In this document: one piece after another, positions 1,785 through 34,629 of the stretch
Layout of the letters: each line of letters starts with the position of its first letter
Numbering within the stretch: position 1 is the first letter of the stretch
Source of the DNA: Candidatus Aminicenantales bacterium
GTDB taxonomy: Bacteria > Acidobacteriota > Aminicenantia > Aminicenantales > Saccharicenantaceae
NCBI GenBank assembly: GCA_041736225.1
Contig: JBGSUG010000073.1
Coordinates: 1-42,322, forward strand
DNA length: 42,322 bases
Direction of reading: 5' to 3'
The notes under the pieces: model-generated
Databases searched by the model: none
Told to the model about the DNA's origin: nothing
The model's input: only the letters and a program-made list of their open reading frames with translations
Made by a program: the position numbers and the translations under genes

Positions 1785-1813
1785 GGGAACATGTACCTCC
1801 GGTACGTATCCCC
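1785..1813 (+). repeat. Degenerate copy of the 29-nt palindromic hairpin family (GGGAACATGTACC-TCC-GGTACGTATCCCC), 7 nt after the protease stop
   Basis: Read directly from the sequence. It has the same 13+3+13 architecture as the other copies, with three arm positions no longer Watson-Crick paired. Confidence 0.6.
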
Positions 1814-1828
1814 GTTCGAGAGAGAAGA

Positions 1829-1857
1829 GGGGACACGTACCCGGGGTACATGTCCCC
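1829..1857 (-). terminator. Palindromic hairpin family copy, oriented for the minus-strand transcript (downstream of the OmpA-like gene)
   Basis: The plus strand reads GGGGACACGTACC-CGG-GGTACATGTCCCC. On the minus strand this gives GGGGACATGTACC-CCG-GGTACGTGTCCCC, a 13-bp stem with one U.G pair. It lies 24 nt past the stop of the 1881..2516 gene and is followed on that strand by TCTTCTCTCTC. Confidence 0.55.
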
Positions 1858-1880
1858 CCTGTCTGTGTTCTGAGATTCGC

Positions 1881-2516
1881 TTATTCGTAGACCAGGATCT
1901 CGACCCGCCTGTTCTGGCTGCGGCCATCGCGTGATCCGTTGTCGGCGACGGGCACGGAGCTGCCCAGGCTGACGGCGGACATGCGGTGCAGCGGGATGCG
2001 GTGCTGCTTGTAGAGGTACATCATGACGGCTTCGGCCCGCTTCTGGCCGAGAGAGTGATTGATCTCGTCGCTTCCGGTGCTGTCGGTGTGGCCCTGGATC
2101 TCGATGTAGACGCCCTTGTTCTCGGTGATGAGCTTCTGGACGAACCCGTCGAGGATGCCCTTGGCCTCGGGGCTGAGCGCGGCGCTGTCGAAGCCGAACT
2201 TGGCGTCGCTGTTCTTGACGGTGGCGGTCAGGACGAGGTTGCCCTTGATGAGGGTCTTGACCTCTTCGATCTTGCCGTCGACCGCCTTGAACTGGCCGTC
2301 GTGCGCGCTGATGAGCGAGCCGATGGTCGCCAGCTGGTCGTCGTGCTCCTTGAGCCGCTTCTGGCTGGCCTCGACGTCGCTCGAGACCTCGGCGATCTTC
2401 TGGTCGAGGGTGGCGGATTCCGTCCGGACGAACTTCTTCGTGGCGCAGGCCGGCCCGGTGACGAGGGCGACCAGCAGGACGAAACCCGCGATGATGACGA
2501 ATGACTTGTTCTTCAT
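1881..2516 (-). CDS. OmpA-family lipoprotein (helical spacer plus C-terminal OmpA peptidoglycan-binding domain)
   Basis: The signal peptide has a lipobox (LVALVTGPAC). The C-terminal OmpA_C block reads GHTDSTGSDEINHSLGQKRAEAV...NRRVEILVYE. Confidence 0.9.
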   Translation of the reverse strand: MKNKSFVIIAGFVLLVALVTGPACATKKFVRTESATLDQKIAEVSSDVEASQKRLKEHDDQLATIGSLISAHDGQFKAVDGKIEEVKTLIKGNLVLTATVKNSDAKFGFDSAALSPEAKGILDGFVQKLITENKGVYIEIQGHTDSTGSDEINHSLGQKRAEAVMMYLYKQHRIPLHRMSAVSLGSSVPVADNGSRDGRSQNRRVEILVYE

Positions 2517-2669
2517 GAGAACCTCCTGTCTGTGATTCTTGACGGGCGGCGGGAAACCGACGCCGCTCCCAAACCCCGCTGGGTCAATAATAGGCCCTTT
2601 TCCATAATAAAGAAAGAGCCGGGGGCGTCAATACCCTTAACGGAGGATTCCCGGAAACGGGGTGATGCC

Positions 2670-3614
2670 TCAGTATCCCTGCCGCGTGCGGAGCTTGTGC
2701 TTGTAGTTCGGAGTGGTGATCCGGATCCAGCGGTAGAGCTCGGCCGTGTCCTGGTAGGACGTGTAGCCGATGATGTACTGGTGGCTCTGCTCGTTCTTGA
2801 TCTCTTGGACGACCCGGCCCAGGTCTTCGGGTTCGTTCAGGAACCAGGCCTTGCCGCCGGTGGCCGCCGAGAACCTGTCCAGGGTGGCGACGATGCCGGC
2901 CGAGGTCAGGCCGGAGGCCCGCTTGTGGGCCTCGAGCATCTGCTCGCTCCGGGGGATCTTGTAGCCGATGGTGTAGATGGGGACGTCGACCCGTTTGGCG
3001 ATCTCGAGGGCCTGCTCGGGGGTCGATTCGCTGTCGTTCTCGATGCCGTCGGTGAGGAGGAGCAGTGCCCGCTTCTCGTTTCTGGCCCGCGTTGCGAATT
3101 CCGGCGAGACGGCCACGGCGTCGTTGAGGGCGGTCTGGCCGTAGGCCTCGAGCTTGTCGAGGACGCGGAGGAACTCCTCTTTGTCGGTCGAGTGCTTGGC
3201 CGCGACCTCGACCTGGCCGTCGGCGAAGATGAGCAAGGCGATCTCGTCCCGGTAGCGGAGGAGCTTCGTGGCCAGGTGGCGCAGGGCCGCCTTGCATTCC
3301 GCGAGCTTGTTCTCGAGGCCCATGCTGCCGCTGACGTCCAGGAGGACGGTCAGGCTGAGGGGCGATCCGAAGTCGTGATCGAAGTAGGTGATGCCCTTTC
3401 TCTTGTTGTTCTCGTAGACGGTGAAGTCCTTCTCCACCAGGTTGTTGACGAACCGCCCCTTGGAATCCTGGACCGTGACGGCCAGGGTGATGGCCCGGAC
3501 GACGTACTCGTGGGCGGCCTGATCCTGGACCTGTTCCTGGGCCCGGGCCGCCCGGGCCGGCCAGACTGCGGCCAGGCAGGCGAGGACAAACACGATCAGA
3601 ACGTTTCTTTTCAT
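2670..3614 (-). CDS. VWA (von Willebrand factor A) domain protein of the VWFA-related Acidobacterial type, secreted
   Basis: The MIDAS-type motif VLLDVSGSM is present. The start was moved to the internal ATG (MKRNVLIVFVLACLAAVWPARAARAQ signal peptide). The N-terminal beta-sandwich and the C-terminal YIIGY..Y tail are typical of this family. Confidence 0.8.
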   Translation of the reverse strand: MKRNVLIVFVLACLAAVWPARAARAQEQVQDQAAHEYVVRAITLAVTVQDSKGRFVNNLVEKDFTVYENNKRKGITYFDHDFGSPLSLTVLLDVSGSMGLENKLAECKAALRHLATKLLRYRDEIALLIFADGQVEVAAKHSTDKEEFLRVLDKLEAYGQTALNDAVAVSPEFATRARNEKRALLLLTDGIENDSESTPEQALEIAKRVDVPIYTIGYKIPRSEQMLEAHKRASGLTSAGIVATLDRFSAATGGKAWFLNEPEDLGRVVQEIKNEQSHQYIIGYTSYQDTAELYRWIRITTPNYKHKLRTRQGY

Positions 3615-3758
3615 GGCTATTGCGCGGGGGTCGAGAGTCCAAAATACCACGCGCCAGGGGGCAAATCAAGGAACGGACGAAAATGCGCGCACTTCACAAG
3701 AGAGTTTTGTCGGGCGAAAGGCCCCGTTTTACGAAAAGGCCGTCGGGTCCCCGGTGAA

Positions 3759-4037
3759 CTAGCTGGGGAGCTGCTCGGCGCCGGAGGTCTCGACGTCGGA
3801 CGCGAAAAACGACATCTCGCATCCGGTGCCGCTTGGCTCGGCCTCGCAGAAATGCGGGGCCGTCCATGTGGCGATCTCGAGCGTGAGGAGCGGCTCTTCC
3901 TCCTGTTGCGCATCCTCGGGGGAGGCGACCGGACGCTCCTGGAACCTCGCCTGGACCTTCCGGGCGTCGGCCATCAGGCGGAAGAGATAGACAGTGGTGA
4001 CGAGGGGAATAACGCCGGCTGCGATCGCAATGCTCAC
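3759..4037 (-). CDS. Hypothetical small membrane-anchored protein (one N-terminal TM helix, acidic Cys-containing tail)
   Basis: The GTG start lies 1 nt after the stop of the upstream HTH gene, which suggests coupling. The N-terminus is hydrophobic (IAIAAGVIPLVTTVYLF). I recognise no family. Confidence 0.4.
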   Translation of the reverse strand: MSIAIAAGVIPLVTTVYLFRLMADARKVQARFQERPVASPEDAQQEEEPLLTLEIATWTAPHFCEAEPSGTGCEMSFFASDVETSGAEQLPS

Positions 4038-4038
4038 A

Positions 4039-4212
4039 CTATCGGCCCGTCCTTTTCACGAAGCCCCGCAGGTCCTTTTCCCAGACGCGTGTTATCCGCT
4101 TGCCTCCGAGGTGGAAGGCTTTGAGCTCGCCTTTGGCGATCCAGTAATGGACGCTCCGCCGGGTGACGCCGAGCGCCTGGCAGATCTCTTTGATGGTGTA
4201 CATGCGCTCCAT
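4039..4212 (-). CDS. Excisionase/MerR-superfamily helix-turn-helix DNA-binding protein (Xis/AlpA-like)
   Basis: MERMYTIKEICQALGVTRRSVHYWIAKGELKAFHLGGKRI matches the excisionase-family HTH pattern. I chose an internal ATG as the start. An AT-rich promoter-like region lies upstream. Confidence 0.7.
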   Translation of the reverse strand: MERMYTIKEICQALGVTRRSVHYWIAKGELKAFHLGGKRITRVWEKDLRGFVKRTGR

Positions 4213-4487
4213 CGGATCGCCTCGCCAAGGTCCGTTTATTTCACATGCTTGCACATGTTGTCAAGTCATTTGTTATCAATTAGTTATAAATATGCGAATG
4301 CAACAAGATGAAGGGCGTCTCCGGTCGTGCGGCCCAAGATATTGTGCGGGGAACGGGCGGGCCGGCCCTGGCGCCGGGCCTGCGCCCGGGGCCTGAATCG
4401 GGAACTCCGCGACCTTCGAGGGCGCGACATGATATATTATGAGCTCGAGCTCAATGCAGTTCGGACATTCGTGGTGGAGGTCGATCC

Positions 4488-5159
4488 GTGCCGAGGACAA
4501 GAAGGTCTCTTCCGTTGCTGTCGGTCGCCGTATTCTTCTTCGCGCTTCCGGCCGCGGCGCAGCATATGTCCCGGCCGCCGGCCGAGCAGATCTGGCTGGC
4601 CCCGCGTCAGAGCGTGCCCGTCTTCGATTTTCCGGCGAAAGGCCTGATCCTGGATATCGGCGGGGGCGGCTGGGGCGTCATCGGACAGCTGAAGGGCAAA
4701 CAGGTCGTCTCCATCGACATCAGCCCGCAGGAGCTCGTGGAAGCCCCGCCCGGGCCTCTCCTCAAGATCATCATGGACGCCCGGCAGCTCCTGTTCCTGG
4801 ACGACACCTTCCCGACGGTCACCGTGTTCTTCACCTTCATGTTCATGGCCCCGGCCGACCACGAGAAGGTCTTCCGCGAGCTCTACCGGGTCACCGAGCC
4901 GGGCGGGCGGCTTCTCATCTGGGATGTCGTCTTTCCCGACATCAGGGACCCGAAGAAGAGGTTTGCCACCTTCCCGGTCACCGTCAAGCTTCCCGGCAAG
5001 GATATCGACGCGGGCTACAGTACCTACCTGGTGCCCGGGGGGCAGGGGCTGCCGCACTTCGAGGCTTTGGCCGCTAAGACCGGTTTCGTGGTCGTCACCA
5101 AGAGAACTTCCCAGGATTGGTTCACCCTGGAGCTTGCCAAGCCGCGGATGGGCAAATAG
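4488..5159 (+). CDS. Class I SAM-dependent methyltransferase with an N-terminal signal-peptide/anchor-like segment
   Basis: The GTG start is preceded by GGTGGAGG. The SAM motif I is ILDIGGGGWG, and the Methyltransf_11-like core includes EPGGRLLIWD. The N-terminus reads MPRTRRSLPLLSVAVFFFALPAAAQ. Confidence 0.8.
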   Translation: MPRTRRSLPLLSVAVFFFALPAAAQHMSRPPAEQIWLAPRQSVPVFDFPAKGLILDIGGGGWGVIGQLKGKQVVSIDISPQELVEAPPGPLLKIIMDARQLLFLDDTFPTVTVFFTFMFMAPADHEKVFRELYRVTEPGGRLLIWDVVFPDIRDPKKRFATFPVTVKLPGKDIDAGYSTYLVPGGQGLPHFEALAAKTGFVVVTKRTSQDWFTLELAKPRMGK

Positions 5160-5170
5160 ACCGCCGGCCC

Positions 5171-5533
5171 ATGAAGCCCCGCTATCGGAGCATGCTCCGC
5201 AAGATGGAAGTCAGAGAGACCTCGGTTCCCTGGTCCCTCTATATCCTGAGATGCGGCGACGGGTCGTTCTATACCGGAGTGACGACCGACATCGAACGCC
5301 GTTTCCGCGAGCATGAGAAAGGCAAGGCTTCCCGGTATACGCGGACGCACCGGCCCGTCGTTCTCGTTTATCAGGAAATGTGCGGCAGCCGGTCCCAGGC
5401 GCTATTGCGGGAGTGCGCCGTCAAATCCCTGGGCCGGCAGGCGAAAGAAGATCTTGTCGCCGGGGGAATGGCCGGAGGCCGGCTGAAAACGCCGAAGCGG
5501 CGGAAAGCCGAAAGCACGGGAGCCCAGGACTAG
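5171..5533 (+). CDS. GIY-YIG nuclease family protein (small stand-alone type)
   Basis: The GIY-YIG signature is WSLYILRCGDGSFYTGVTTDIERRFREH...RYT. The start codon is uncertain; several in-frame ATGs lie between 5171 and 5210. Confidence 0.8.
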   Translation: MKPRYRSMLRKMEVRETSVPWSLYILRCGDGSFYTGVTTDIERRFREHEKGKASRYTRTHRPVVLVYQEMCGSRSQALLRECAVKSLGRQAKEDLVAGGMAGGRLKTPKRRKAESTGAQD

Positions 5534-5565
5534 GCTCCGGACGTCTTCGGCACGGGGGGCCGGGC

Positions 5566-7239
5566 TCATGTCGAAGCCTCCCAATCGCGGATCGCCAGAA
5601 TGGCTTCTTCCGGCGTCCGGACCGTCCTCAAGGCTTGCATGAGCGACCTGTTCTGGGAGGCCCGGCTGGCCAGGCCCAGGAGCTTGACCTGGGTGTCGGG
5701 GGTTCGGGCCGGTGACAGGATCAGGAAAACGATCTCGATGGGCTTGTCCGTCGCGACGTCGATGACCCCCTCCCGCGTCAATCCCAGGGCGATGACCGGA
5801 GCGGCCAAGCCCTCCACCCGGACATGGGGGAACGCCACGCCCTCGTTGAAGAACGTCGAGCTCTGGGTTTCCCGTTCCATGACGGATTTGTAAAGGCCCT
5901 CCCCGGCTTCCCTTCCGATGGTCGAGGCCAGGGTCCTGAGAACGGTCTCCTTCTCGACCGCCGCCTCCCAGACCACGACATGCTGCGGAGAAGTCAGCAA
6001 ACTGAGACGGGGGCGGTCGACCGGCCGGATCCCCGATCCCGCCGCCGGCTCCATGGAGGAGGGTGGGGCTTCCTCCGGCAGTCCGGGCCCTGGCCGGACG
6101 GAGACCGGCCGGTCCTCGCTCGTATCGAGGACGATGACCGTGACCTTCCGGGCGTTCCTGACGAGGTCCTCGACGACCGTCTTGTTCCGGCCGATCCTTT
6201 TCCAGAGGGGCCGGGGAAGGGCCCGGCCCATAACCATGTGACCGACCCGGTATTCCGCGGCGAACCGGAGGAGGGTGTCGGCGACGTCTTCGCCCTTGTA
6301 GGTGAAGACCATGGCCCCCAGCTGCTTGGCCAGGGTCAGCGTGTCCGAGAGGTGGCGTTGGACCTGGGCGTCGATGACCGTCGCCTCCTCGGCCGGCGTC
6401 TGGACGTAGACGGCATACCAGTTCCGGTTGAGCTTCCCCGCCAGGCGCGAGCCGTATCGCAGGAGCTTCTCGCTGTTCGGCCCGTGCGAGCTCAGGCAGA
6501 CCATGACCTGATCCGACGAGGCGCTCTCTTCCGTCCCCAGGTCTTCGCGGCGGCGCAGGTCGATCTGCGCCGCGAGCTCGCGGAGCGTCAGCTCCCGGAG
6601 CTTCTCCAGGTTGGACTTCGTGAAAAAGTTGGCCATCGCGGTCTCGATGCGCTCGGCCGGGTAGATCTTACCTTCTTCGAGGCGCTTCCGGAGGTCCGCG
6701 GTCGCCAGATCGACATCGACGATCTCGTCCGCTTCGGCCAGAACGGAATCCGGCAGACGCTCGCGGACCTTGACTCCGACGGCCGTCTCCACGATGTTGT
6801 AGAGGCTTTCGAGATGCTGGACGTTGAGCGTGCTGATGACGTGGATCCCCGCCGCCAGGATGTCCTGGACGTCCTCGTACCTCTTCGCGTTCCGGCTGCC
6901 CGGGATGTTGGTGTGGGCGAGCTCGTCGATGAGGGCGACTTGCGGCTTGCGCGCGATGACCGCCTCCGCGTCCATCTCCTCGATCGCTATGCCGTGGTAT
7001 TCCTGAGCGCGGCGGGGAACGACTTCCAGTCCCTCGGCGAGCCGGGCGATCTCCGCCCGGCCGTGCGTTTCGAGAAGGCCGATGACGACGTCGATGCCTT
7101 CGCTTTTTAGCCGTCGGCCTTCCTGGAGCATCTGATAGGTCTTACCGACGCCGGCCGAGTAACCGAGGTAGATCTTCAGCCGCCCCCGCCGGGACCGGCG
7201 GATCATCCGGAGGAAAGCGTCGGCCTTATCTTCCGGCAT
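5566..7239 (-). CDS. KdpD sensor half (KdpD N-terminal domain + USP domain) fused to a PTS EIIA type-2 (PtsN-like) domain; no histidine-kinase core
   Basis: The N-terminus GRLKIYLGYSAGVGKTYQML...LIDELAHTN...STLNVQHLES is the KdpD N-terminal domain. The middle segment VMVCLSSHGPNSEKLLRYGSRLA...HMVMG is USP-like. The C-terminus FFNEGVAFPHVRVEGL...IEIVFLILSP is the EIIA-2 fold with the conserved phosphorylatable His. No HisKA/HATPase motifs are present. The gene overlaps the kdpC stop by 14 nt. Confidence 0.85.
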   Translation of the reverse strand: MPEDKADAFLRMIRRSRRGRLKIYLGYSAGVGKTYQMLQEGRRLKSEGIDVVIGLLETHGRAEIARLAEGLEVVPRRAQEYHGIAIEEMDAEAVIARKPQVALIDELAHTNIPGSRNAKRYEDVQDILAAGIHVISTLNVQHLESLYNIVETAVGVKVRERLPDSVLAEADEIVDVDLATADLRKRLEEGKIYPAERIETAMANFFTKSNLEKLRELTLRELAAQIDLRRREDLGTEESASSDQVMVCLSSHGPNSEKLLRYGSRLAGKLNRNWYAVYVQTPAEEATVIDAQVQRHLSDTLTLAKQLGAMVFTYKGEDVADTLLRFAAEYRVGHMVMGRALPRPLWKRIGRNKTVVEDLVRNARKVTVIVLDTSEDRPVSVRPGPGLPEEAPPSSMEPAAGSGIRPVDRPRLSLLTSPQHVVVWEAAVEKETVLRTLASTIGREAGEGLYKSVMERETQSSTFFNEGVAFPHVRVEGLAAPVIALGLTREGVIDVATDKPIEIVFLILSPARTPDTQVKLLGLASRASQNRSLMQALRTVRTPEEAILAIRDWEAST

Positions 7240-7819
7240 CGAGGACTCCGTCCAGAGCGAGGTTCAGACGCAAGACGTTCACCCGGGGCTCGCCCAGGAT
7301 GCCCAGCGTGCGGCCTTCGGTGCAGGCCTCGATCCCGGCCAGGACGTCGGCCTCCGGGAGCCCCCGGGCTCGAGAGACCCGGCGGGCCTGGATCCGGGCG
7401 TTCTCCGGAGAGATGTGGGGATCGAGGCCGCTCGCCGAAGCCGTGACGGCATCGGCCGGTACCGTCGTCGCGGCATCGAGACGGTTCTCCTCGCGGTATG
7501 CGGCGATCCGATCCCGGACGGTTTCCGCGAGGGCCTTCGACAAGGGCCCGAGATTCGTCCCCCCGGACCGGCCGCCGTCGTATCCTTGGCCCGCGGCCGA
7601 AGGACGGGGGTGAAAATACTCCGGGGACGAGAACTTCAGGCCGATCAGACTCGACCCGGCGACGACCCCGTCGTGCACGATGAGCGAACCATTGGCCCGG
7701 CCGGGAAAAAGACCCTGGGCGAGGACCCAGGCGGCGAGCGGATAGAGGCCGCACAGGAGGACGGCCAGGACGGCCACGGCCAGGAACGACCTTCGGAGTT
7801 CGATGAGCCAACTCTTCAT
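7226..7819 (-). CDS. kdpC: Potassium-transporting ATPase subunit C
   Basis: It has one N-terminal TM helix and KdpC blocks (GSSLIG, ASGLDPHISPENA, VNVLRLNLALD). It sits in the kdpFABC order. Confidence 0.95.
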   Translation of the reverse strand: MKSWLIELRRSFLAVAVLAVLLCGLYPLAAWVLAQGLFPGRANGSLIVHDGVVAGSSLIGLKFSSPEYFHPRPSAAGQGYDGGRSGGTNLGPLSKALAETVRDRIAAYREENRLDAATTVPADAVTASASGLDPHISPENARIQARRVSRARGLPEADVLAGIEACTEGRTLGILGEPRVNVLRLNLALDGVLDAGR

Positions 7820-7840
7820 TTCCGTGCGGCCTTCTCCATG

Positions 7841-9868: not shown

Positions 9869-9874
9869 CCTCGC

Positions 9875-11578: not shown

Positions 11579-11591
11579 CGTCGTCGCCTTG

Positions 11592-11675
11592 TCAGAATTT
11601 TTCGGGCCGCAGGATGCTCCACAGCAGGTAGCCGATGAGCAGGATCCCGATGACGAATCCCAGGATGTTCGCCAT
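11592..11675 (-). CDS. kdpF: Potassium-transporting ATPase subunit F (27-aa single-TM peptide)
   Basis: The peptide is MANILGFVIGILLIGYLLWSILRPEKF. It starts 2 nt after the kinase stop and ends 13 nt before kdpA. The tail of track ORF 11592..12047 contains it. Confidence 0.75.
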   Translation of the reverse strand: MANILGFVIGILLIGYLLWSILRPEKF

Positions 11676-11677
11676 CG

Positions 11678-24872: not shown

Positions 24873-24908
24873 GAGGCTGTCGCGGCCAGTAGCTAATAAA
24901 AGAATTGG

Positions 24909-24985
24909 TGGGGTGAGTGAGGGGAATCGAACCCCCAACCTTCGGATCCACAGTCCGATGCTCTAACCGTTGAGCTACACTCACC
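24909..24985 (-). tRNA. tRNA-His (anticodon GUG) with encoded G-1 and encoded CCA
   Basis: The reverse complement folds as a cloverleaf: GGUGAGUG acceptor including the extra 5' G, UAGCUCAACGGUUAGAGC D-arm, anticodon loop CUGUGGA, and GGGGGUUCGAUUCCCCU T-arm. The discriminator C pairs with G-1, followed by CCA. Confidence 0.95.
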
Positions 24986-25001
24986 ATAAGGTTGGCGAGG
25001 A

Positions 25002-25030
25002 ATTATCGCATTTGGGGAAAAAGTAGTCAA
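25002..25030 (-). promoter_or_regulatory. Sigma70-type promoter for tRNA-His
   Basis: The minus strand reads TTGACT-17 nt-GATAAT. The inferred +1 is about 10 nt upstream of the mature tRNA 5' end. Confidence 0.55.
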
Positions 25031-25046
25031 ATCAGGGAGGAAACGC

Positions 25047-25086
25047 TAAAAAAGAATGGGGACACGTACCAAGGGTACATGTCCCC
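25047..25086 (-). terminator. Intrinsic terminator of era, built from a palindromic hairpin family copy
   Basis: The minus strand reads GGGGACATGTACC-CTT-GGTACGTGTCCCC (13-bp stem with one U.G pair) followed directly by ATTCTTTTTT. It lies 14 nt past the era stop. Confidence 0.8.
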
Positions 25087-25100
25087 GACCTTTTCCCGAA

Positions 25101-26117: not shown

Positions 26118-26136
26118 GGTTCCCCCTCGGCCCGCG

Positions 26137-27363: not shown

Positions 27364-27770
27364 GCCAGGTAGAGCCCGTGGGCCTTCCGCTCCTCTTCCT
27401 CGATGCCGGCGAAGTGGTCGAAGCCGAGAAGATGGAGGTAGCCGTGGATGGCGAGCAGGCGCAGCTCGCGGTCGAGCGAGTGGCCCTTCTCCCGGGCCTG
27501 GCGGTCGGCGACCGGCACGGCGATGACGATGTCGCCCAGATAGTACTTGCCGTCCGGACCCTTCTCCCCGAGAGGGAAGCTGAGGACGTCGGTCGGCCGG
27601 TCTTTCTTCATGAACTTGCGGTTCAGGGTCCGGATGGCTTTGTCGCCGACGAAGGCCAGGGTGACCTCCGGGTCGGCGAGCCGGTACTGCCGGCCGAGGT
27701 CCGCGAGCAGGCGCTCAAACGCTTTTGTCCGGATCCGGTGCTTTTTCTGGCGGTTGATGATCTCGATCAT
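27360..27770 (-). CDS. ybeY: rRNA maturation endoribonuclease YbeY
   Basis: The zinc motif HGYLHLLGFDH is present. Its size and its position in the phoH...era operon fit YbeY. Confidence 0.93.
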   Translation of the reverse strand: MIEIINRQKKHRIRTKAFERLLADLGRQYRLADPEVTLAFVGDKAIRTLNRKFMKKDRPTDVLSFPLGEKGPDGKYYLGDIVIAVPVADRQAREKGHSLDRELRLLAIHGYLHLLGFDHFAGIEEEERKAHGLYLA

Positions 27771-30114
27771 GGTCCTTTTTCTTGTTGCCGTTCGCCCCGT
27801 CTTTCCGGGCCGGCCGGCCGTTGAAGCCGAAGCCCGGGTATTCGATGCGGGGATGGTAGATGGCGAAAAGGATGGTCAGGAACGACGCGGCGACGTTGCG
27901 CAGTTCCCGCAGGGAGAAATCGCAGGCGTCGAGCTGCCCGTCCTGGAGGGTGGCGTTGATGATGTCGGTGATGACCCGCTTGAGGTTGTCCTTGGTCGGC
28001 GCCTTGAGGCTGCGCGAGGCGGCCTCGACCGCGTCGGCCAGCATGACCAGGCCGGCCTCCTTCGACTGGGGCGGCGGCCCCGGATAGCGGAAGGGCTCCT
28101 CGCCCACGGTCTGTCCTTCGGGGTCGTAGAGCTGCTTGGCCTTGGCGTAGAAGAAGCGGACGAGCGAGTTACCGTGGTGCTGCTCGATGATCTCGCGGAT
28201 GGGCCGGGGCAGCTTGAGCTTGCGGGCGATCTCGGCCCCTTCCTTGACGTGGTTCTTGATGACCAGCGTGCTCATCGAGGGCGTCAGGTCCTTGTGGAGG
28301 TCGAATTCCCGGGACCGGTTCTCGATGAAGTACTCCGGCATCTTGGTCTTGCCGATGTCGTGGTAGAGGGCCCCGGCTTTCGTCAGCTGGGTGTCCAGGC
28401 CGAGCTCCTCGGCCGCCTTTTCGGCGAGCGAGGCGACGACGAGGGAATGATGGTACGAGCCCGGGGCCTCCTCGGAAAGCTGGCGGAAAATGGGCAGATC
28501 GGAGTTGGTCAGCTCCAGGAGCTTCGAGCCGGTCACGAAGCCGAAGGCCGATTCCACGAGGGGCAGGAGGAGGAAGGCCAGCACGGCGCTGGCCGCCCCG
28601 CCGATGACTCCCATGATGATCCGGGCCGTGAGCCCGGCCAGGTCGCCCCCGCCTTCGATGAGGCTGAAGGCGAGGAGGATGAAGGCGTTGGCCGCGGGCA
28701 GAACGATGAAACCGGCCCGGAGCGTCGCCGCCCGGAAGCGCCTCTTGTAGAGCTTGACGCCGTAACCCGCGGCCAGGCCGCCCAGGAAGCTGAACATGGT
28801 CAGGGTGAAATCGCCCCCGAACAGGATACCGACGGTCACGGTGTTGAGGATGATGCAGAGGAGCGTGATCTGGGCGGGGACGAGGAAGGCGAAGACGAGG
28901 ACCGCCGCCTGCAGGGGGAAAGCGAAATAGAAGGTCTCGACGCGCGAGAACGCCGGCGTCGCGAAGGCCCCGGAGACGGCCGCGGCCAGGACCAGAAAGA
29001 TCTTGTAGAGGACGAGGCTGCCGAGGAGCGCCGCGCCCATCATCCGGAACTGACGCTCGGCCTCGCGGGGCTTGGCGGTGGCCCGGAGATAGCTCCAGAG
29101 GGCGAAGAAGAGGAGCCCGTAGAGCAGGAAAGCGCCGGCGAAGCGCGGCAGCCAGCTCGAGCGCCGCCGCATCCTCTGGTTATAGGGCTCCAGGACCTTG
29201 AGCGTATCGGCCGTGACTTCGTCGCCTTTGCGGACGATGATCCGGTCCTTCTTGACGGTCAAGGTGACCGTGCCGACCGCGTCCCTGGCCTGCGCTTTCC
29301 TCTTATCGGTCTCGATCTTGTTGTAGGTGACGTTGGAGGTCAGGAAGATCTGTCCCAGGTTGGAGAGCAGCGTCCGGTCCCTGGCCGGGAGCTCGATCTT
29401 GTCGAGGTCGGCGGCGAAGCGGCTCTCGCTCTCGCGGATGTCGAGGAGGTCGCCGACGCGGACCGTCCGCTCGCCGCGCTGCCCGTCGAGGAGGGTCATG
29501 CCCCTGTCCGCTTCGCCGTGGATGAAGAGGTTCTTGGCGACGATGATGCCCTGGTCGAAGGTCTTGGCCGTCAGGTTGACCAGCATCTCTTCGAGCTCGG
29601 CCGGGAATTTCAGCCGGGCCAGGGTCGCGACGTCCGCGGCCTCGAGATCGACGCCCAGCTTGTCGAGGAGCACCGAACGGAGCTCTTCCGGGGGACGGCC
29701 CCCGGGGGCCTTGGAAGTCCAGTCGCGGCCTTCGGCGAACAGCCGCCGGATCTTGTCCTCGGTGACGGCGAAGACGTTGGGATCGTACGTATAGACGGGC
29801 AGGATGGCGTCGGCGGCCTCGGTCTTTTTCTGGAGCGTCGCTTCGTCGTCCTCGATGAGAAGGTCGAAGGGCGCGACGACGTCCGCCGGAGCGATGTCGT
29901 CCAAGGCGAGCGCCGACAGGCCCTGCGAGGGCAGGCGGACCAGGAAGAGCGCGGCGACGACGGCGACGATCGCCAGAAAGACCCAGGGGCTGTCGAAAAA
30001 GCCTCGGCCCGGGGGCTGGCCCTTCTCCTCTTCGCCGGATTCGGCGGCGGGCCGTCCGGGCTGGATCTCGGCGCCCTTGAAGAGCTTGATCTTGTCGAAG
30101 AAGCGGTCGGGCAT
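27715..30114 (-). CDS. pgpH: Membrane 7TM-HD phosphohydrolase (PgpH/YqfF family, HDIG domain)
   Basis: It has an extracellular N-terminal domain, a 7TM block and an HD domain (HHSLVVASLAE...LYHDIGK...EQHHG). The ORF tail overlaps the ybeY start by 56 nt. Confidence 0.88.
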   Translation of the reverse strand: MPDRFFDKIKLFKGAEIQPGRPAAESGEEEKGQPPGRGFFDSPWVFLAIVAVVAALFLVRLPSQGLSALALDDIAPADVVAPFDLLIEDDEATLQKKTEAADAILPVYTYDPNVFAVTEDKIRRLFAEGRDWTSKAPGGRPPEELRSVLLDKLGVDLEAADVATLARLKFPAELEEMLVNLTAKTFDQGIIVAKNLFIHGEADRGMTLLDGQRGERTVRVGDLLDIRESESRFAADLDKIELPARDRTLLSNLGQIFLTSNVTYNKIETDKRKAQARDAVGTVTLTVKKDRIIVRKGDEVTADTLKVLEPYNQRMRRRSSWLPRFAGAFLLYGLLFFALWSYLRATAKPREAERQFRMMGAALLGSLVLYKIFLVLAAAVSGAFATPAFSRVETFYFAFPLQAAVLVFAFLVPAQITLLCIILNTVTVGILFGGDFTLTMFSFLGGLAAGYGVKLYKRRFRAATLRAGFIVLPAANAFILLAFSLIEGGGDLAGLTARIIMGVIGGAASAVLAFLLLPLVESAFGFVTGSKLLELTNSDLPIFRQLSEEAPGSYHHSLVVASLAEKAAEELGLDTQLTKAGALYHDIGKTKMPEYFIENRSREFDLHKDLTPSMSTLVIKNHVKEGAEIARKLKLPRPIREIIEQHHGNSLVRFFYAKAKQLYDPEGQTVGEEPFRYPGPPPQSKEAGLVMLADAVEAASRSLKAPTKDNLKRVITDIINATLQDGQLDACDFSLRELRNVAASFLTILFAIYHPRIEYPGFGFNGRPARKDGANGNKKKDHDRDHQPPEKAPDPDKSV

Positions 30115-30120
30115 GGCGCG

Positions 30121-31068
30121 TCAGCTCTCCCGGGATTCGGCCTTCTGGTAGGCCTTGACGATCTTCTGGACGAGCGGGTGGCGGACGACGTCCTTGTCGT
30201 TGAACTGGATGAAGGCGATCTCCGGGAGGGAGATGAGGATCTTCATCGCCTGGAGGACGCCCGACTTGCGGGGCTGGGGCAGGTCGATCTGGGTGATGTC
30301 GGCCGTGATGACCAGCTTCGAGTCGAAGCCGGCCCGGGTCAGGATCATCTTCATCTGCTCCCGGGTCGTGTTCTGGGCCTCGTCGAGGATGATGAAGGCG
30401 CCGTTGAGCGTCCGGCCGCGCATGAAGGCCAGGGGCGCGATCTCGATGACCCCCCGTTCGATCAGGCGGTTGGCCTGGTCGTACTGGGAGAGGTCGAACA
30501 GGGCGTCGTAGAGGGGCCGAAGGTAGGGATTGATCTTTTGGATGAGGTCCCCGGGCAGGAAACCGAGCTTTTCGCCCGCCTCGACAGCCGGGCGGGTGAG
30601 GATAATGCGGTTGACGGCCTTGTTCTGGAGGAAGGCCAGGGCCATGGCCATGGCCAGGTAGGTCTTGCCCGTGCCGGCCGGGCCGATGCCGAAGACCAGG
30701 TCGTGGGTCTTGATGGCCTGGATGTAGGCCTGCTGGTTGAGGCTCCTGGGGGTGACCGATTTCCGGGACAGGGCCAGGGGCTCGGCCGGCGCGTAGCCTT
30801 CCAGGGAGGCGGGCGATCCCTCTTCGACCATGTCCAGGGCGATCAGGAGGTCCTCCTCGCGGAGCTGGTGGCCCTTCTCGCCGAGCTGGCGGAGGCGATC
30901 GAAGTAGCTCTTGGCGAAGGCGACCCGGTGGGAGTCCCCGTCGACGAGGAGCTGGTCGCCGCGCAGGGCCAGGCTGACGCCCAGGCGGGATTCCAGCTTT
31001 TTCAGGGTTTTCCCCTGGACGCCGGACAGGGCAGATTCGTTCATCAGAGGAAGAGTGATCTTTTCCAT
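30121..31068 (-). CDS. phoH: PhoH-family ATPase (YbeZ-like)
   Basis: The Walker A motif is GPAGTGKTYLA, with ILDEAQN and a PhoH C-terminal block. Confidence 0.93.
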   Translation of the reverse strand: MEKITLPLMNESALSGVQGKTLKKLESRLGVSLALRGDQLLVDGDSHRVAFAKSYFDRLRQLGEKGHQLREEDLLIALDMVEEGSPASLEGYAPAEPLALSRKSVTPRSLNQQAYIQAIKTHDLVFGIGPAGTGKTYLAMAMALAFLQNKAVNRIILTRPAVEAGEKLGFLPGDLIQKINPYLRPLYDALFDLSQYDQANRLIERGVIEIAPLAFMRGRTLNGAFIILDEAQNTTREQMKMILTRAGFDSKLVITADITQIDLPQPRKSGVLQAMKILISLPEIAFIQFNDKDVVRHPLVQKIVKAYQKAESRES

Positions 31069-31121
31069 TTTTTTCAGGGGCGGGGGGCCCGAGCGGGTTC
31101 GGTTTCCGTCATTATCAAGGC

Positions 31122-31152
31122 ATTATACCCATAACGCCGCGCCCCTTGTCAA
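31122..31152 (-). promoter_or_regulatory. Sigma70-type promoter for the phoH operon
   Basis: The minus strand reads TTGACA-19 nt-TATAAT. The long spacer lowers confidence. Confidence 0.4.
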
Positions 31153-31166
31153 GCGACCCTCCCAGC

Positions 31167-31195
31167 GGGGACACGTACCAAGGGTACGTGTCCCC
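31167..31195. repeat. Perfectly symmetric copy of the palindromic hairpin family, centred between the divergent phoH and RHH promoters
   Basis: GGGGACACGTACC-AAG-GGTACGTGTCCCC has all 13 arm positions complementary. It sits 14-15 nt upstream of each predicted -35 element. Confidence 0.8.
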
Positions 31196-31208
31196 GGAGC
31201 ACAGGCCC

Positions 31209-31237
31209 TTGAAAATCGGGCCCGTCTGGGGTATAAA
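31209..31237 (+). promoter_or_regulatory. Sigma70-type promoter that predicts a leaderless RHH-sat transcript
   Basis: In TTGAAA-17 nt-TATAAA, the last -10 base is 7 nt before the A of the ATG at 31244. No Shine-Dalgarno sequence is possible in that space. Confidence 0.5.
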
Positions 31238-31243
31238 TCCACC

Positions 31244-31459
31244 ATGGACAAAGAATTCACGACGGTATCGATACCCACCTCGCTCCACAAGAAGATCGAG
31301 GAGTTCATCAAGGGGACGGAATACGCCTCCGTCTCGAGCTATGCGGCCAAGGTCCTCAGGGAAAGCCTGTCCAAGCCGGAGCCGGCGACCGAGGTCTTCA
31401 GCAAGGACGAGGAAGAGAAGGTCAAGGAACGCCTGAAGGCCCTGGGATACATCGACTGA
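31244..31459 (+). CDS. Ribbon-helix-helix (CopG/Arc-like) DNA-binding protein
   Basis: MDKEFTTVSIPTSLHKKIEEFIKG...YAAKVLRESL fits a beta-strand/helix/helix RHH pattern. The gene is an internal segment of track ORF 30911..31459. Confidence 0.6.
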   Translation: MDKEFTTVSIPTSLHKKIEEFIKGTEYASVSSYAAKVLRESLSKPEPATEVFSKDEEEKVKERLKALGYID

Positions 31460-31514
31460 CCCGCCCGGCCGCCCGATCGCCCTATCCTTCCGGAATAGGA
31501 ACAAGGAGAGAACC

Positions 31515-32663
31515 ATGATCCAGCCTCACGGCGGAAAGCTCGTCGACAGGGTCCTGACGGACAAGAAAAGGGACGCGGCGCTCACCGGGGCCGGGCGGCT
31601 GGCCCGCCTGACGGTCGATTCCGAGATCGTCTCCGACCTCGAGAACATCGCCACGGGGGTCTATAGCCCCCTCGAGGGCTTCCTCGGAGAGGCCGACTTC
31701 CGGAGCGTTCTCGCCGGGAGCCGCCTGCGTTCGGATGTCGCCTGGACCGTGCCCATCGTGCTCGACGCCGACGAGGCGACGGCCGGCAAGCTCAAGATCG
31801 GGGACGAGGTGTTGCTCGCGGCCGAGGACGGGCGGCCCGTCGCCATCCTCCATCTCGAGGAAAAGTACAGCTACGACAAGGGCGAGATGGCCGATAAGGT
31901 CTTCGGGACGCGCGACGCGGCCCACCCCGGCGTCGCCAAGGTCCTCAAGATGAAGGACGTCCTCCTGGCCGGGCCGATCGATCTCATCGAGATCACGCCG
32001 ACGCCGTTCGACCGCTGGAAGCTCGCGCCGAAGGAGACCCGGGTCCTCTTCGAGGCCAAGGGCTGGAAGACGGTCGTCGGCTTCCAGACGCGCAACACCC
32101 CCCACCTGGGGCACGAATACGTCCAGAAGGCGGCCCTGACCTTCACCGACGGCCTGTTCATCAACCCCGTCATCGGCCGCAAGAAGAAGGGCGATTTCAA
32201 GGACGAGATCATTCTGGCGTCCTACGAGGAGGCCATCCGGCGCTACTACGTCAAGGAGCGGACGGCCCTGGCCATCCTCCAGATGGAGATGCGCTACGCC
32301 GGGCCGCGCGAGGCCATCCACCACGCCATCCTGCGCAAGAATTTCGGCTGCACCCACATCATCATCGGCCGGGACCATGCCGGAGTGGGCTCCTATTACG
32401 CCCCGTTCGCCGCTCAGGACATCTTCGCCGACTTCCCCGACCTGGGCATCGCGCCGATGTTCTTCCGGTCGTTCAGCTGGTGCAAGACCTGCGGGGCGGT
32501 CGTCAACGAGAAGATCTGCCCCCACCCGCCGGCCGAGCATGTTCAGTTCAGCGGCACGAAGATCCGCGACCTCCTGGTGAACGGCGAGTGCCCGCCGCCG
32601 GAGCTGATGCGGCCGGAGGTGGCCGACGTCATCATGCGCTTCAAGGATCCGTTCAATGAATGA
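31515..32663 (+). CDS. sat: Sulfate adenylyltransferase (ATP sulfurylase)
   Basis: The motifs are GFQTRNTPHLGHEY and IIGRDHAGVG, with a PUA-like N-terminal domain. AAGGAGAG lies upstream of the ATG. Confidence 0.95.
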   Translation: MIQPHGGKLVDRVLTDKKRDAALTGAGRLARLTVDSEIVSDLENIATGVYSPLEGFLGEADFRSVLAGSRLRSDVAWTVPIVLDADEATAGKLKIGDEVLLAAEDGRPVAILHLEEKYSYDKGEMADKVFGTRDAAHPGVAKVLKMKDVLLAGPIDLIEITPTPFDRWKLAPKETRVLFEAKGWKTVVGFQTRNTPHLGHEYVQKAALTFTDGLFINPVIGRKKKGDFKDEIILASYEEAIRRYYVKERTALAILQMEMRYAGPREAIHHAILRKNFGCTHIIIGRDHAGVGSYYAPFAAQDIFADFPDLGIAPMFFRSFSWCKTCGAVVNEKICPHPPAEHVQFSGTKIRDLLVNGECPPPELMRPEVADVIMRFKDPFNE

Positions 32664-34038
32664 CCGGAAGGTCGTCGTCGTCGGGCTCGACTGCGCGCCG
32701 CCCGAGATCGTCTTCGACCGGCGCGGGGAGTTCCCGGTCCTGAACGGGCTGATCGAGAAAGGGCTCTGGGGAAAGCTCCGCAGCTCCGACCCGCCCATCA
32801 CCATCCCGGCCTGGATGGTCATGGCCACCGGGCTCGACCCGGGACGGCTGGGGCTCTACGGCTTCCGCCACCGCACGGGCTATTCCTACGACAAGATGTG
32901 GATCGCCAACTCGAAGGCGGTCAAGGAGAAGCGCCTCTGGGATTACATCGGCGAGGCGGGCGGGACGAGCACCCTCGTCAGCGTGCCGCCGAGCTACCCG
33001 CCCTATCCCGTGGCCGGGAACCTCGTCTCCTGCTTCATCACGCCCCCGGGGCCGGGGAAGGAAACGACCTGGCCGGCCGGGCTCAAAGCCGAGATCGAGG
33101 AGAGGTTCGGGCCCTATATCTTCGACGTCGTCTTCCGCACGGAGGACCGCGACCAGATCCTGCGCGAGATCTACGCCATGACCGACAAGCGCTTCGAGGT
33201 CATGGAGTGGCTCATCGAGACCAAGCCCTGGAACCTGTTCATGTTCGTCGAGATCGGGGTCGACCGCGTCCATCACGCTTTCTGGAAGTACATGGACCGG
33301 GCGCACCACCTTTACGAGCCGGGCAACCGTTTCGAGACGGCCATCGTCGACTACTACAAGCACCTCGACGCGAAGATCGGCCGGCTCCTGGCCAAGGCGG
33401 GCGACGGCACGGCCGTGCTGGTGGTCTCCGACCACGGCGCGAAAAGGATGAAGGGCGCCTTCTGCGTCAACGAGTGGCTGATCGAGAAGGGCTGGCTGGC
33501 CGTCAAGGAGCGTCCGGCGAAGCCGACGAGCCTCGACGACCTGGCCATCGACTGGGAGAAGACCCGGGCCTGGGCCTGGGGCGGTTATTACGCCCGCGTC
33601 TTCCTCAACGTCGAAGGGCGCGAGCCCAAGGGCGTCATCCCCGCCGAGGATTACGAGAAGGTGCGCGACGAGCTTCTGGCCGAGATCGAGGCCGTCCGGG
33701 GGCCGGCGGGGGAGGCCTGGGCGACCAAGGTCATCAAGCCGCAGGAATATTACGAGGTGCTCGAGGGCGAGTACCCCGATCTCATGGTCTACTTCGACGA
33801 CCTCTACTGGCGGTCGGCGGGGACGCTCGGCTACGGAACGATGTACCTCCCGGAGAACGACACCGGGCCGGACGACGCCGTCCACGCCCAGCACGGGATC
33901 TACATCCTGAGCGACCCGGCGAGCGGCCGCGCGGGACGTCGCGACGGCGACATCCTGGACATCGCGCCGACCGTCCTCGACATCATGGGCCTCCCCATCC
34001 CAGAAAAAATGAAAGGCCGGGTCCTCCGGCCGGAATGA
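32656..34038 (+). CDS. Alkaline-phosphatase superfamily protein (type I phosphodiesterase / nucleotide pyrophosphatase family)
   Basis: The N-terminal metal-site block is VVVVGLDCAPPE...PITIPAWMVMATG, followed later by VSDHG. The start overlaps the sat stop by 8 nt. Confidence 0.8.
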   Translation: MNDRKVVVVGLDCAPPEIVFDRRGEFPVLNGLIEKGLWGKLRSSDPPITIPAWMVMATGLDPGRLGLYGFRHRTGYSYDKMWIANSKAVKEKRLWDYIGEAGGTSTLVSVPPSYPPYPVAGNLVSCFITPPGPGKETTWPAGLKAEIEERFGPYIFDVVFRTEDRDQILREIYAMTDKRFEVMEWLIETKPWNLFMFVEIGVDRVHHAFWKYMDRAHHLYEPGNRFETAIVDYYKHLDAKIGRLLAKAGDGTAVLVVSDHGAKRMKGAFCVNEWLIEKGWLAVKERPAKPTSLDDLAIDWEKTRAWAWGGYYARVFLNVEGREPKGVIPAEDYEKVRDELLAEIEAVRGPAGEAWATKVIKPQEYYEVLEGEYPDLMVYFDDLYWRSAGTLGYGTMYLPENDTGPDDAVHAQHGIYILSDPASGRAGRRDGDILDIAPTVLDIMGLPIPEKMKGRVLRPE

Positions 34039-34053
34039 AAGGAAAGAGAGCGC

Positions 34054-34587
34054 ATGTGCGGAGAACATGAAGGCTTCACGCTGTGGTTCACGGGACTGCC
34101 GTGTTCAGGGAAATCGGCCGTCGGCGACAAGGTCGCCGAGATCCTCAAGGAAAGAGGGCATCACGTCGAGAGGCTCGACGGGGACGTGGTCAGGCAGGAC
34201 CTGACCCGCGACCTGGGCTTCTCCAAGAAGGACAGGGACGAGAACATCCGCCGGGTCACGTTCGTGGCCAAGCTCCTGTCGCGCAACGGCGTCGCCGTCT
34301 TGACCTCGTTCATCTCGCCCTACCGGGAGATGCGCGACCGGGCCCGGAAGGAGACGACCCACTTCGTCGAGGTCTACGCCAAGTGCCCGCTCGAGGTCTG
34401 CATCCAGCGCGACGTCAAGGGCATGTACCAGAAGGCCATCCGCGGCGAGATCAAGGAATTCACGGGTATTTCCGATCCCTACGAGGAGCCGACGAACGCC
34501 GAGATCGTCCTCGAGACGGATAAGGAGACGATCGACGAGAGCGTCGAGAAGGTCTTCCGCCGCCTCGGAGAACTGGGCCTGCTCTGA
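34054..34587 (+). CDS. cysC: Adenylyl-sulfate (APS) kinase
   Basis: The P-loop is WFTGLPCSGKSAV, with LDGDVVRQ, ISPYREMR and the size typical of CysC. Confidence 0.95.
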   Translation: MCGEHEGFTLWFTGLPCSGKSAVGDKVAEILKERGHHVERLDGDVVRQDLTRDLGFSKKDRDENIRRVTFVAKLLSRNGVAVLTSFISPYREMRDRARKETTHFVEVYAKCPLEVCIQRDVKGMYQKAIRGEIKEFTGISDPYEEPTNAEIVLETDKETIDESVEKVFRRLGELGLL

Positions 34588-34600
34588 TGGGGGATCTGAT

Positions 34601-34629
34601 GGGGACATGTACCTTCGGTACGTGTCCCC
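34601..34629 (+). terminator. Palindromic hairpin family copy downstream of cysC, oriented for the plus-strand transcript
   Basis: GGGGACATGTACC-TTC-GGTACGTGTCCCC (one U.G pair in plus-strand RNA) lies 13 nt after the cysC stop. It is followed by CCTCTTTCCCGTCCTCATTTCC, which is pyrimidine-rich but not a clean U-tract. Confidence 0.55.

Follow-up and report, generated by a model that had tools for sequence, protein, structure and literature searches.

Why should a 29-nt palindrome, always between genes, occur five times in 42,322 nt of bacterial DNA (the window, that is, the whole stretch that was analysed), and why should three of its copies carry the same asymmetry with respect to the gene that ends just upstream? 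A pattern search of the window with GGGGACAYGTACC-N3-GGTACRTGTCCCC found again every copy listed in the sequence-only reading, at 1785 (with 2 mismatches), 1829, 25058, 31167 and 34601; none of 100 shuffled sequences contained a match, and the number expected by chance is 0. All five lie between genes in our own gene calls, as had been claimed, with the caveat that the copy at 31167 is not at any gene end. The arms of copies 1829, 25058 and 34601 were again identical, GGGGACATGTACC...GGTACGTGTCCCC, when read in the direction of the upstream-ending gene, whose stop codon lies 23, 14 and 13 nt away, respectively.

The first two copies form a REPIN-like convergent (tail-to-tail) doublet between convergent genes (1785..1857), in which two inverted copies are separated by a 15-nt spacer. 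One of them (1785..1813, + strand), 6 nt past the stop of a peptidase-like gene, is a degenerate T..G copy, GGGAACATGTACC-TCC-GGTACGTATCCCC, with two additional broken pairs and an RNA fold of -18.4 kcal/mol (z -3.2). Its partner (1829..1857, - strand), past the stop of an OmpA-family gene (1881-2516, - strand), is a consensus copy in the T..G form and folds at -28.8 kcal/mol (z -5.2). Another consensus T..G copy (25058..25086, - strand) stands behind the era stop codon, folds at -24.5 kcal/mol (z -6.3) and is followed directly on its 3' side by a T-rich tail, ATTCTTTTTT (25048..25057, - strand), and then by a tRNA promoter (25030-25002). The copy behind cysC, the gene for APS kinase (34601..34629, + strand), also has the consensus T..G form; a promoter-like site lies downstream of it (34656-34683), and its 5' junction carries a tandem duplication with a 12-nt period, TCTGATGGGG-GA-TCTGATGGGG (34583..34604, + strand), which takes in the stop codon of cysC as well as the hairpin's first GGGG. 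The copy at 31167..31195 is a perfectly paired C-G copy without the polarity mark and sits between divergent promoter regions; its neighbours, phoH (- strand) and a 71-aa ORF (31244-31459, + strand), are divergent, and no gene ends there.

Folding energies were computed for both strands. Copies 1829, 25058 and 34601 gave -23.8 to -28.8 kcal/mol (z -5.2 to -6.3) when read in the sense (U.G) direction, and the antisense (C.A) read gave -20.5 kcal/mol for 25058 and -21.0 kcal/mol for 34601; the sense fold is favoured by about 4 kcal/mol. The copy at 25058, previously singled out for its good U-tract, was indeed the only one in the window that passed a scan for a hairpin followed by a T-tract. Rfam at gathering thresholds gave no match at the hairpins, its sole hit being a tRNA at 24912-24984.

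A genome-wide search with the consensus found 74 copies in this 2.9-Mb Aminicenantes MAG (G000), so the family reaches far beyond the five sites of the window, and 84 copies in the sister genome G018. The repeats are 29-31 nt long, and in both genomes most copies are intergenic, with a minority inside ORF calls. The host of the repeat is one high-GC genus of Candidatus Aminicenantes, in which 25 of 26 species carry the family at 0-106 copies per genome. Eight other families of the order, represented by 12 genomes, had no copy of the hairpin, and a reversed control pattern gave no matches in the genomes searched for range. A literature search on palindromic repeats in Aminicenantes returned nothing relevant.

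The asymmetry seen in the window turned out to be a true family property rather than chance. A single T.G position (C.A on the opposite strand) is found in 66 of 74 copies of this genome and in 78 of 84 copies of G018; by form, the 74 copies comprise 37 T..G, 29 C..A, 4 perfect C-G, 2 perfect T-A and 2 other, the perfectly paired forms being rare (6/74). Read in the T.G orientation, loop positions 1 and 2 are pyrimidines and the 3' tail is T-rich (3.04 vs 2.24 T per 8 nt, p = 7e-5), at least four T within 8 nt after the stem being present in 61 of 144 copies. Outside the stem, sequence preference is weak and limited to c/aaa and gTTcTT in the flanks. Taken as feet, the arms read GGGGACAT on one strand and GGGGACAC on the other. 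Stem mutations within the genome mostly break pairs, as they do in a master-copy population; within-genome covariation, considered as a proof of RNA structure, was rejected on this ground. The suggestion that the asymmetry reflects directional copying was supported.

The accompanying claim, that the U.G strand is sense to the gene ending upstream, stood only in part: it holds for all four oriented copies of the window (4/4), but over two genomes it becomes a 2:1 bias, with 37 sense and 17 antisense among the stop-proximal copies (p about 0.009). The 111 scored copies consist of 37 that are sense only, 17 that are antisense only, 11 in tight convergent spacers and 46 near no gene end, and these context counts are approximate because the gene calls rest on our own GC3-based caller. 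Many copies lie 1-40 nt past stop codons, about 40% are not near any gene 3' end, some are found between divergent genes, and some lie in frame within ORFs. In tandem spacers the counts were 21 sense and 26 antisense, by which a strict sense-orientation rule was rejected. Since the sense rule is only a 2:1 bias and tandem, divergent and in-ORF copies occur, the polarity (T.G, pyrimidine loop and T-rich tail) is a property of the element and not mainly set by transcription. Most copies are singlets; of 25 close pairs in the two genomes, 23 have both copies oriented, 12 tail-to-tail ('><', the commonest arrangement), 3 head-to-head and 8 direct. Hairpin orientation is associated with local GC skew. 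The orientation blocks of G018 showed no association with gene-strand bias, which was therefore rejected as their cause.

Four sister species (G013, G009, G018 and G034) carry a Y1 transposase gene flanked by inverted copies of the hairpin (L106, L107, L118 and L119), with T..G copies upstream, C..A copies downstream and the last copy overlapping or abutting the 3' end of the gene. In the tree these four genes form one clade (support 97/94). Their protein passed the Pfam Y1_Tnp cut-off (36.9 bits vs 23), and its sole NCBIfam hit, NF047646 (REP-associated tyrosine transposase), covers the whole profile with a score below the cut-off (56.6 bits vs 80). Reading by eye, we recognised the motifs NHVH (HUH), WQGRF, Y-x3-NP and a C-terminal GxPLGxEDF; a PDB sequence search with the Y1 protein gave no hit. 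A separate Y1 clade (support 87/95) is flanked by a second repeat, TIR2 (GGGGACATGATACC...), whose family reads GGGGACATGATACC or GGGGACACAATACC. A sister gene of the hairpin-flanked clade, in G032, has a variant palindrome, GGGGACACACAC-N-GTGTGTGTCCCC, on its flanks, and a DnaA_C-type Y1 gene on contig C10 is flanked by a third repeat family. Gene lineage and repeat type therefore co-vary.

The two Y1 genes of this genome were considered as owners of the hairpin and rejected, as neither is hairpin-flanked and each has its own repeat family. A gene of the cognate clade is missing from this MAG, and only 4 of the 26 genomes of the genus that were searched yielded one; some genomes hold 40-72 copies with no cognate Y1 gene in the assembly, and most such assemblies are fragmented. 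The cognate gene may have been lost or left unassembled in this MAG, and a related Y1 enzyme encoded on contig C227, a candidate only, may serve in its place.

The history of the sites was read from their presence or absence in relatives. This genome shares 42 syntenic sites with G018. Both genomes carry the hairpin at 16 of them, and G018 lacks it at the remaining 26, where several sites are cleanly empty. The cysC-side site of copy 34601 is empty in G018, and the era-side site of copy 25058 is filled, variant or empty among relatives. This polymorphism, which is indirect evidence of movement, and the dedicated Y1/RAYT-like clade flanked by the repeat in sister species support the earlier suggestion that the family may be REP-like or mobile; it is REP-like and probably mobile. 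Junction duplications like that at 34583..34604 were found at 9-11 of 144 copies vs 8 of 5000 random GGGG sites. Where species share an orthologous copy, its arms hardly differ while its loop has diverged; it retains its orientation, its T.G and its pairing, with a few compensatory changes between species. Such conservation of arms and pairing shows constraint on single copies, so host function, not mobility, may maintain them today.

We consider it likely that the hairpin family is a REP/RAYT-type (TIRYT-like, GGGGWSAS-footed) non-autonomous repeat with a cognate Y1/HUH transposase, the decisive evidence being the hairpin-flanked Y1 clade of the four sister species; the family would then be new, but of an already known kind of bacterial mobile repeat. 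A small RAYT/TIRYT-type Y1/HUH tyrosine transposase would have the hairpin as its cognate DNA and, if it works like TnpA(REP) of E. coli and like IS200/IS605, would act on it as a folded single strand. The arms of the hairpin would be slightly different feet, and therefore one strand has a T.G wobble and the other a C.A mismatch. The T.G position, the pyrimidine-first loop and the T-rich 3' tail would give the element a built-in polarity that is copied with it and kept under constraint. Copies would have been seeded into intergenic DNA, mostly directly past stop codons and in convergent spacers, and then inherited vertically for a long time. Judging from their sequence, sense copies with a U-rich tail probably have a secondary role in intrinsic termination or 3'-end stabilisation, which would explain the 2:1 sense bias.

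Could that role instead be the primary one? The hairpin would then serve the host chiefly as RNA, terminating transcription intrinsically or stabilising 3' ends with a conserved sequence; its U.G would have been selected in the transcript, and its association with Y1 would be secondary, as these genes may simply carry terminators. With a GC-rich 13-bp stem and a 3-nt loop, the hairpin does resemble an intrinsic (Rho-independent) terminator, many copies directly past stops have a U-rich tail, and some in convergent spacers look bidirectional. The proximity to stop codons, the excess of sense over antisense copies there, the T-rich tail that is stronger on the U.G side, the greater stability of the sense fold, the promoters downstream of copies 25058 and 34601, and the arms, pairing and U.G kept at orthologous sites with compensatory changes all speak in this direction. 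However, tandem spacers show no sense preference and the orientation is often antisense, 46 of the 111 scored copies are near no 3' end, and there are copies that lie in frame in ORFs or, like 31167, between divergent promoters. Most tails are short or interrupted: fewer than half of the copies (61/144) reach four T in 8 nt and one of the five in the window passes the terminator scan. Moreover, terminators need no conserved 26-nt sequence, whereas here the sequence and not the structure alone is conserved, and one particular transposase clade has several copies, in inverted order, on either side of its genes. We therefore regard a host RNA element as an improbable primary identity, and a putative terminator or stabiliser role of the sense copies as plausible from their sequence. 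Public data with this organism are DNA metagenomes only; contigs of a sediment metatranscriptome belong to relatives at ~90% identity, and their ends were uninformative.

A near-perfect 13+13 inverted repeat could also be the double-stranded site of a dimeric host protein, be it a nucleoid or regulatory protein, an uptake signal or something related to restriction-modification. The arms are strongly conserved between species with a drifting loop, and one copy lies between divergent promoters, as such a site might. Yet the family keeps one asymmetric position, an asymmetric loop and an asymmetric tail, none of which a symmetric dimer site needs; perfect forms are the rare ones, sites are filled in some genomes and empty in others, and Y1 genes are flanked by the repeat. 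The compensatory stem changes point to a folded single strand, and we judge a duplex site to be very unlikely.

The REP/RAYT-type reading can be compared with known systems. Like the REPs and REPINs of E. coli (TnpA(REP)/BIMEs) and Pseudomonas, the repeats are short imperfect palindromes, mostly extragenic, at tens to ~100 copies per genome, occurring as singlets and in some inverted close pairs, with occasional in-frame copies in genes and long vertical persistence; a single-copy Y1/HUH gene has its own repeats on its flanks, and gene clade and repeat are paired in each lineage. Unlike in those systems, the classical GTAG or GT[AG]G foot is absent from the consensus GGGGACATGTACC-N3-GGTACGTGTCCCC, in which the foot, GGGGACAY, is the base of the stem; copies are fewer than in Pseudomonas or E. 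coli, the protein falls below the cut-off of the NCBIfam RAYT model, and the host belongs to the Aminicenantes (Acidobacteriota) and not to the Proteobacteria, with the cognate gene in only 4 of 26 assemblies. IS200/IS605 elements (IS608, ISDra2) share the Y1/HUH enzyme, left and right ends that differ slightly and, by analogy, imperfect hairpins recognised on one strand only; their coupling to the lagging-strand template has a parallel in the GC-skew association. Here, however, the repeat unit contains no transposase, a single 29-nt hairpin would supply both 'ends', and no TTAC-like target was identified. Rickettsia palindromic elements are referred to in PMC3733652. They are ~100-150 bp long, CGTC-tagged and without an associated transposase and also occur in frame within protein-coding genes, but the hairpin is 29 nt long and associated with Y1 genes.

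The foot resembles that of the TIRYTs, or TIRtrons. In these, inverted repeats that carry the foot GGGG[AT][CG]A[CG] stand on either side of a Y1 gene, and the hosts include Acidobacteria (PMC3733652, PMC6006769). These genes (Di Nocera et al. 2013, PMC3733652) correspond to TnpA(Y1) subclass 2.1, or RAYT group 1 of Bertels, according to Quentin et al. 2018, who found no REP-like structures adjoining subclass 2.1 genes (PMC6006769). A C-terminal extension or an HTH marks the proteins of this subclass or group. Our Y1 genes likewise have inverted repeats with this start, one arm reading GGGGACAC, and both systems have moderately abundant families, some self-complementary, in dimers or clusters. 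On the other hand, the repeat described here is a compact self-folding hairpin of 29 nt with a fixed T.G asymmetry and at most 106 copies, REP-like rather than a long TIR. It is possible, though we hold this more specific proposal only tentatively as a whole, that in Aminicenantes a TIRYT/group-1-like Y1 lineage has a true REP population of its own. A single 29-nt hairpin would then be the smallest unit able to move, with GGGGACAT and GGGGACAC as non-identical left and right feet; during single-strand transposition at the replication fork, T.G/C.A would signal which strand to use, the one-sided 12-nt junction duplications would be the footprint of the insertion chemistry, and the host would later have co-opted sense copies as terminators.

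A REP/RAYT system here would bring an acidobacterial class without cultured members into the range of such systems. It would also add TIRYTs with a GGGGWSAS foot, whose association with abundant REP-like repeats had previously lacked a clear demonstration. A single genome with three Y1 lineages and three private repeat families offers a compact system for studying how Y1 enzymes recognise hairpins and what the fixed wobble does, and the copies are useful as markers for strain typing and terminator annotation in the genus. Hairpin copies probably also break short-read assemblies, and the hairpin explains a recurrent motif in Aminicenantes MAGs that gives rise to spurious ORF extensions and to peptide strings (GDTY..YMSP, GHVP.VHVP).

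The window, which is contig C350 of a MAG of 2.93 Mb in 423 contigs with 65.7% GC and whose Era protein has relatives all named as Candidatus Aminicenantes or Acidobacteriota MAGs, was scanned for GGGGACAYGTACC-N3-GGTACRTGTCCCC at a tolerance of 3 mismatches. The scan recovered all five copies reported by the sequence-only reading, at 1785 (2 mismatches), 1829, 25058, 31167 and 34601, and none of 100 shuffled controls held a match. Using our own GC3-based gene calls and Pfam, we found that the copies at 1785 and 1829 form a tail-to-tail doublet with a peptidase-like gene (+) on one side and an OmpA-family gene (−) on the other, and that the copy at 34601 lies 13 nt past cysC with a promoter-like site next to it. 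The copy at 25058 lies 14 nt past era and is followed by ATTCTTTTTT and then by the near-consensus promoter (TTGACT-17-GATAAT, 25030-25002, minus strand) of a tRNA gene at 24912-24984 on the minus strand; it had been singled out for its good U-tract, and it is indeed the sole window copy that passes a classical terminator scan. The perfectly paired copy at 31167 sits between two divergent promoter regions, those of phoH and of a 71-aa ORF. This ORF (31244-31459, plus strand) has no Pfam match and is immediately preceded by a TTGAAA-17-TATAAA promoter-like site.

When 2 substitutions were allowed per arm, the family amounted to 74 copies in the window's own genome. The single non-Watson-Crick position that had been described in the window recurs in most of them: 37 are T..G and 29 are C..A, the same form on the opposite strand, while 6 are perfectly paired and 2 are of another kind. 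The T..G form predominates also in other species of the genus, in which the 29-mer was found in 25 of 26 species with 0-106 copies each; there was none in 12 genomes from eight other families of the order, and a reversed control pattern had no match in any genome scanned. After all copies were turned to the T..G orientation, the loop opened with pyrimidines (position 1: T 64, C 38, G 16, A 1; position 2: C 61, T 36) and the 3' flank was T-rich with the consensus gTTcTT, containing 3.04 T per 8 nt compared with 2.24 on the opposite side (p = 7e-5; the genomic T frequency is 16%). RNA folding predicts that the U.G orientation is about 4 kcal/mol more stable than the C.A orientation.

Orientation relative to genes was analyzed in full in the own genome and in G018, a single-contig sister species, with genes called by GC3 periodicity. 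With the hairpin (H) in T..G orientation, the contexts >H<, >H>, <H< and <H> comprised 21, 11, 9 and 10 copies in the own genome and 17, 10, 17 and 11 copies in G018, and a further 10 and 21 copies, respectively, fell inside ORF calls. Of the copies no more than 40 nt from a gene end, 37 were sense-only and 17 antisense-only (p = 0.009), our home-made gene caller being crude but its errors expected to be symmetric for this comparison; 11 others lay in tight convergent spacers and 46 near no gene end. The proposed rule that U.G appears in the sense of the upstream gene therefore holds for 4 of 4 oriented copies in the window, but genome-wide it shrinks to a 2:1 excess, so that what looked like a rule is a bias, seen in the window at its most favourable. 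Antisense copies, among them C319:20446 and C421:2168, occur between closely spaced co-directional genes. Given the excess of sense copies and the T-rich 3' flank, we suggest that the sense copies are putative terminators or stabilisers. Orientation in G018 also runs in blocks: between 0.72 and 1.35 Mb, 17 of 20 copies have T..G on the plus strand, and between 1.35 and 2.43 Mb, 26 of 34 have it on the minus strand (loci L120-L241 make up the whole contig). It is associated with local GC skew (odds ratio ~4.4, p ~0.004 at 10-25 kb) and showed no association with the gene-strand majority. A replication-coupled single-strand process would fit this association, a reading that is only suggestive because of the weak skew and the post hoc change points.

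Comparison of orthologous sites revealed both presence and absence of the hairpin. Among 42 syntenic sites, whose flanks are 75-90% identical between the own genome and G018, 16 are occupied in both genomes and 26 lack a copy in G018. The clean empty sites include those matching window 34601, C298:709, C100:2650 and C395:577; the copy at C395:577 adds 48 nt in frame to a CDS relative to G018. At shared sites the orientation agrees almost always, the T.G position is kept, the arms are nearly identical and the loops differ, and a few compensatory stem changes were found (C147, C259 and C396:29173, the last GTAC -> GCGC). These features indicate that the shared copies are old, vertically inherited and constrained in both arm sequence and pairing. 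Variants within a genome mostly break stem pairs, as expected from decay of a master sequence, with the exception of a sub-family with C-G changed to G-C at stem position 13. Downstream of era, relatives have this 29-mer, its arms around a 14-nt loop, another palindrome, or nothing, the tRNA promoter directly following the era stop codon. Other Aminicenantes genera (L015-L065) have related hairpins there, for example GGGGACATGACCCATTTCTCCTGAAATGGGATCGTGTCCCC, that have in common no more than the stem base GGGGACAUG...CGUGUCCCC with its U.G. One era-downstream locus, L020, contains four tandem GTGTCCCCnATTTTC half-sites.

The 29-mer is associated with one clade of Y1 transposase genes. Two Y1_Tnp (PF01797) genes are present in the own genome, on contigs C227 and C10; we set both aside as owners since neither has 29-mer flanks. 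With the C227 protein as a genus-wide query and the resulting loci scanned for the 29-mer, a sub-clade emerged that is about 50% identical to that protein and has the 29-mer on its flanks in G013, G009, G018 and G034, four species in all. Relative to the gene, the upstream copies are T..G and the downstream ones C..A, and the last copy overlaps or abuts the gene at its 3' end. The proteins are intact at ~203-208 aa (apparent internal stops are their natural stop codons), bear NHVH and Y-x3-NP motifs and pass Pfam Y1_Tnp with 36.9 bits (cut-off 23); their sole NCBIfam match is NF047646, the REP-associated tyrosine transposase, at 56.6 bits, short of the equivalog cut-off (80). In a tree they form a clade (97/94) distinct from both the C227-type clade (87/95) and the long DnaA_C-type genes. 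A sister gene in G032 (L108, on its contig C57) is bracketed by a palindrome of variant sequence with perfect pairing, GGGGACACACAC-N-GTGTGTGTCCCC (1416-1450 and 2104-2134), and G032 additionally has 39 standard 29-mer copies. The cognate gene is absent from the own assembly and was found in 4 of 26 genus genomes; those without it are mostly fragmented short-read MAGs.

The other two Y1 lineages are flanked by repeats of their own. The C227 gene (7573-8232, minus strand; locus L095) has repeats of a second family, GGGGACATGATACC...GGTATCATGTCCCC, also read GGGGACATGATACC(Y)ATTTCC... plus its inverted partner, ~85 nt upstream and ~10 nt downstream. This family has 36 + 34 arms in the own genome, and C227-type orthologues are also repeat-flanked, other species showing the variant GGGGACACAATACC. 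The DnaA_C-type gene on C10 has one unit of a third hairpin family, GGGACCWGGTCTTCAC-N-GTGAAGACCWGGTCCC (62 arms in the own genome, 1 in G018), on each side, at C10 2147-2202 and 3237-3292; units of this family at 36981-37036 and 37225-37280 of the window make up a 310-bp element between convergent genes. Thus, three Y1 lineages have three private repeat families, which is the REPtron/TIRtron picture.

The polarity of the 29-mer is intrinsic, its sites are polymorphic and its arm sequence is constrained. By analogy with TnpA(REP) and IS608 (PMC6006769, PMC3733652), the Y1 enzyme would recognise a folded single strand of the hairpin, and the non-identical feet GGGGACAT and GGGGACAC together with the T.G/C.A position would tell the strands apart. 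Among described systems, REP/REPIN-RAYT comes closest, and in particular the TIRYT/TIRtrons of Di Nocera et al., whose flanking repeats have GGGGWSAS in common and whose hosts include Acidobacteria (PMC3733652). Quentin et al. equated TIRYT/TIRtrons with subclass 2.1 and reported no REP-like structures beside such genes (PMC6006769), and in the work of Bertels et al. only groups 2 and 3 had abundant 16-mers in their flanks. Unlike classical REPs, the 29-mer family lacks a GTAG foot, has a lower copy number and flanks a protein that matches the RAYT model below threshold. We file it with the already described REP/RAYT-type systems.

Just 5' of the T..G-oriented hairpin, the junction of flank and GGGG is sometimes tandemly duplicated with a period of 12-17 nt. 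Such duplications were found at 9-11 of 144 copies, while the 3' side showed them at 1 of 144 and random GGGG sites at 8 of 5000; they occur at 34583-34604 in the window, at C230:4773, C243:540, C60:3675 and C238:14756 elsewhere in the own genome, at 235618, 1353514 and 1428700 in G018, and near 2090-2112 of locus L106. Empty-site targets already read ...TGATGGGG(A). Some copies are in frame inside ORFs with coding-type GC3 on both sides, namely C395:577, C243:540 and C157:6599 in the own genome, and G018 has in-frame copies at 555038-558076 (three) and 1390654-1392126 (two). The 29-mer has no stop codon in any of the six frames, which explains the recurring peptides GDTY..YMSP, GHVP.VHVP and GTCT.GTCP.
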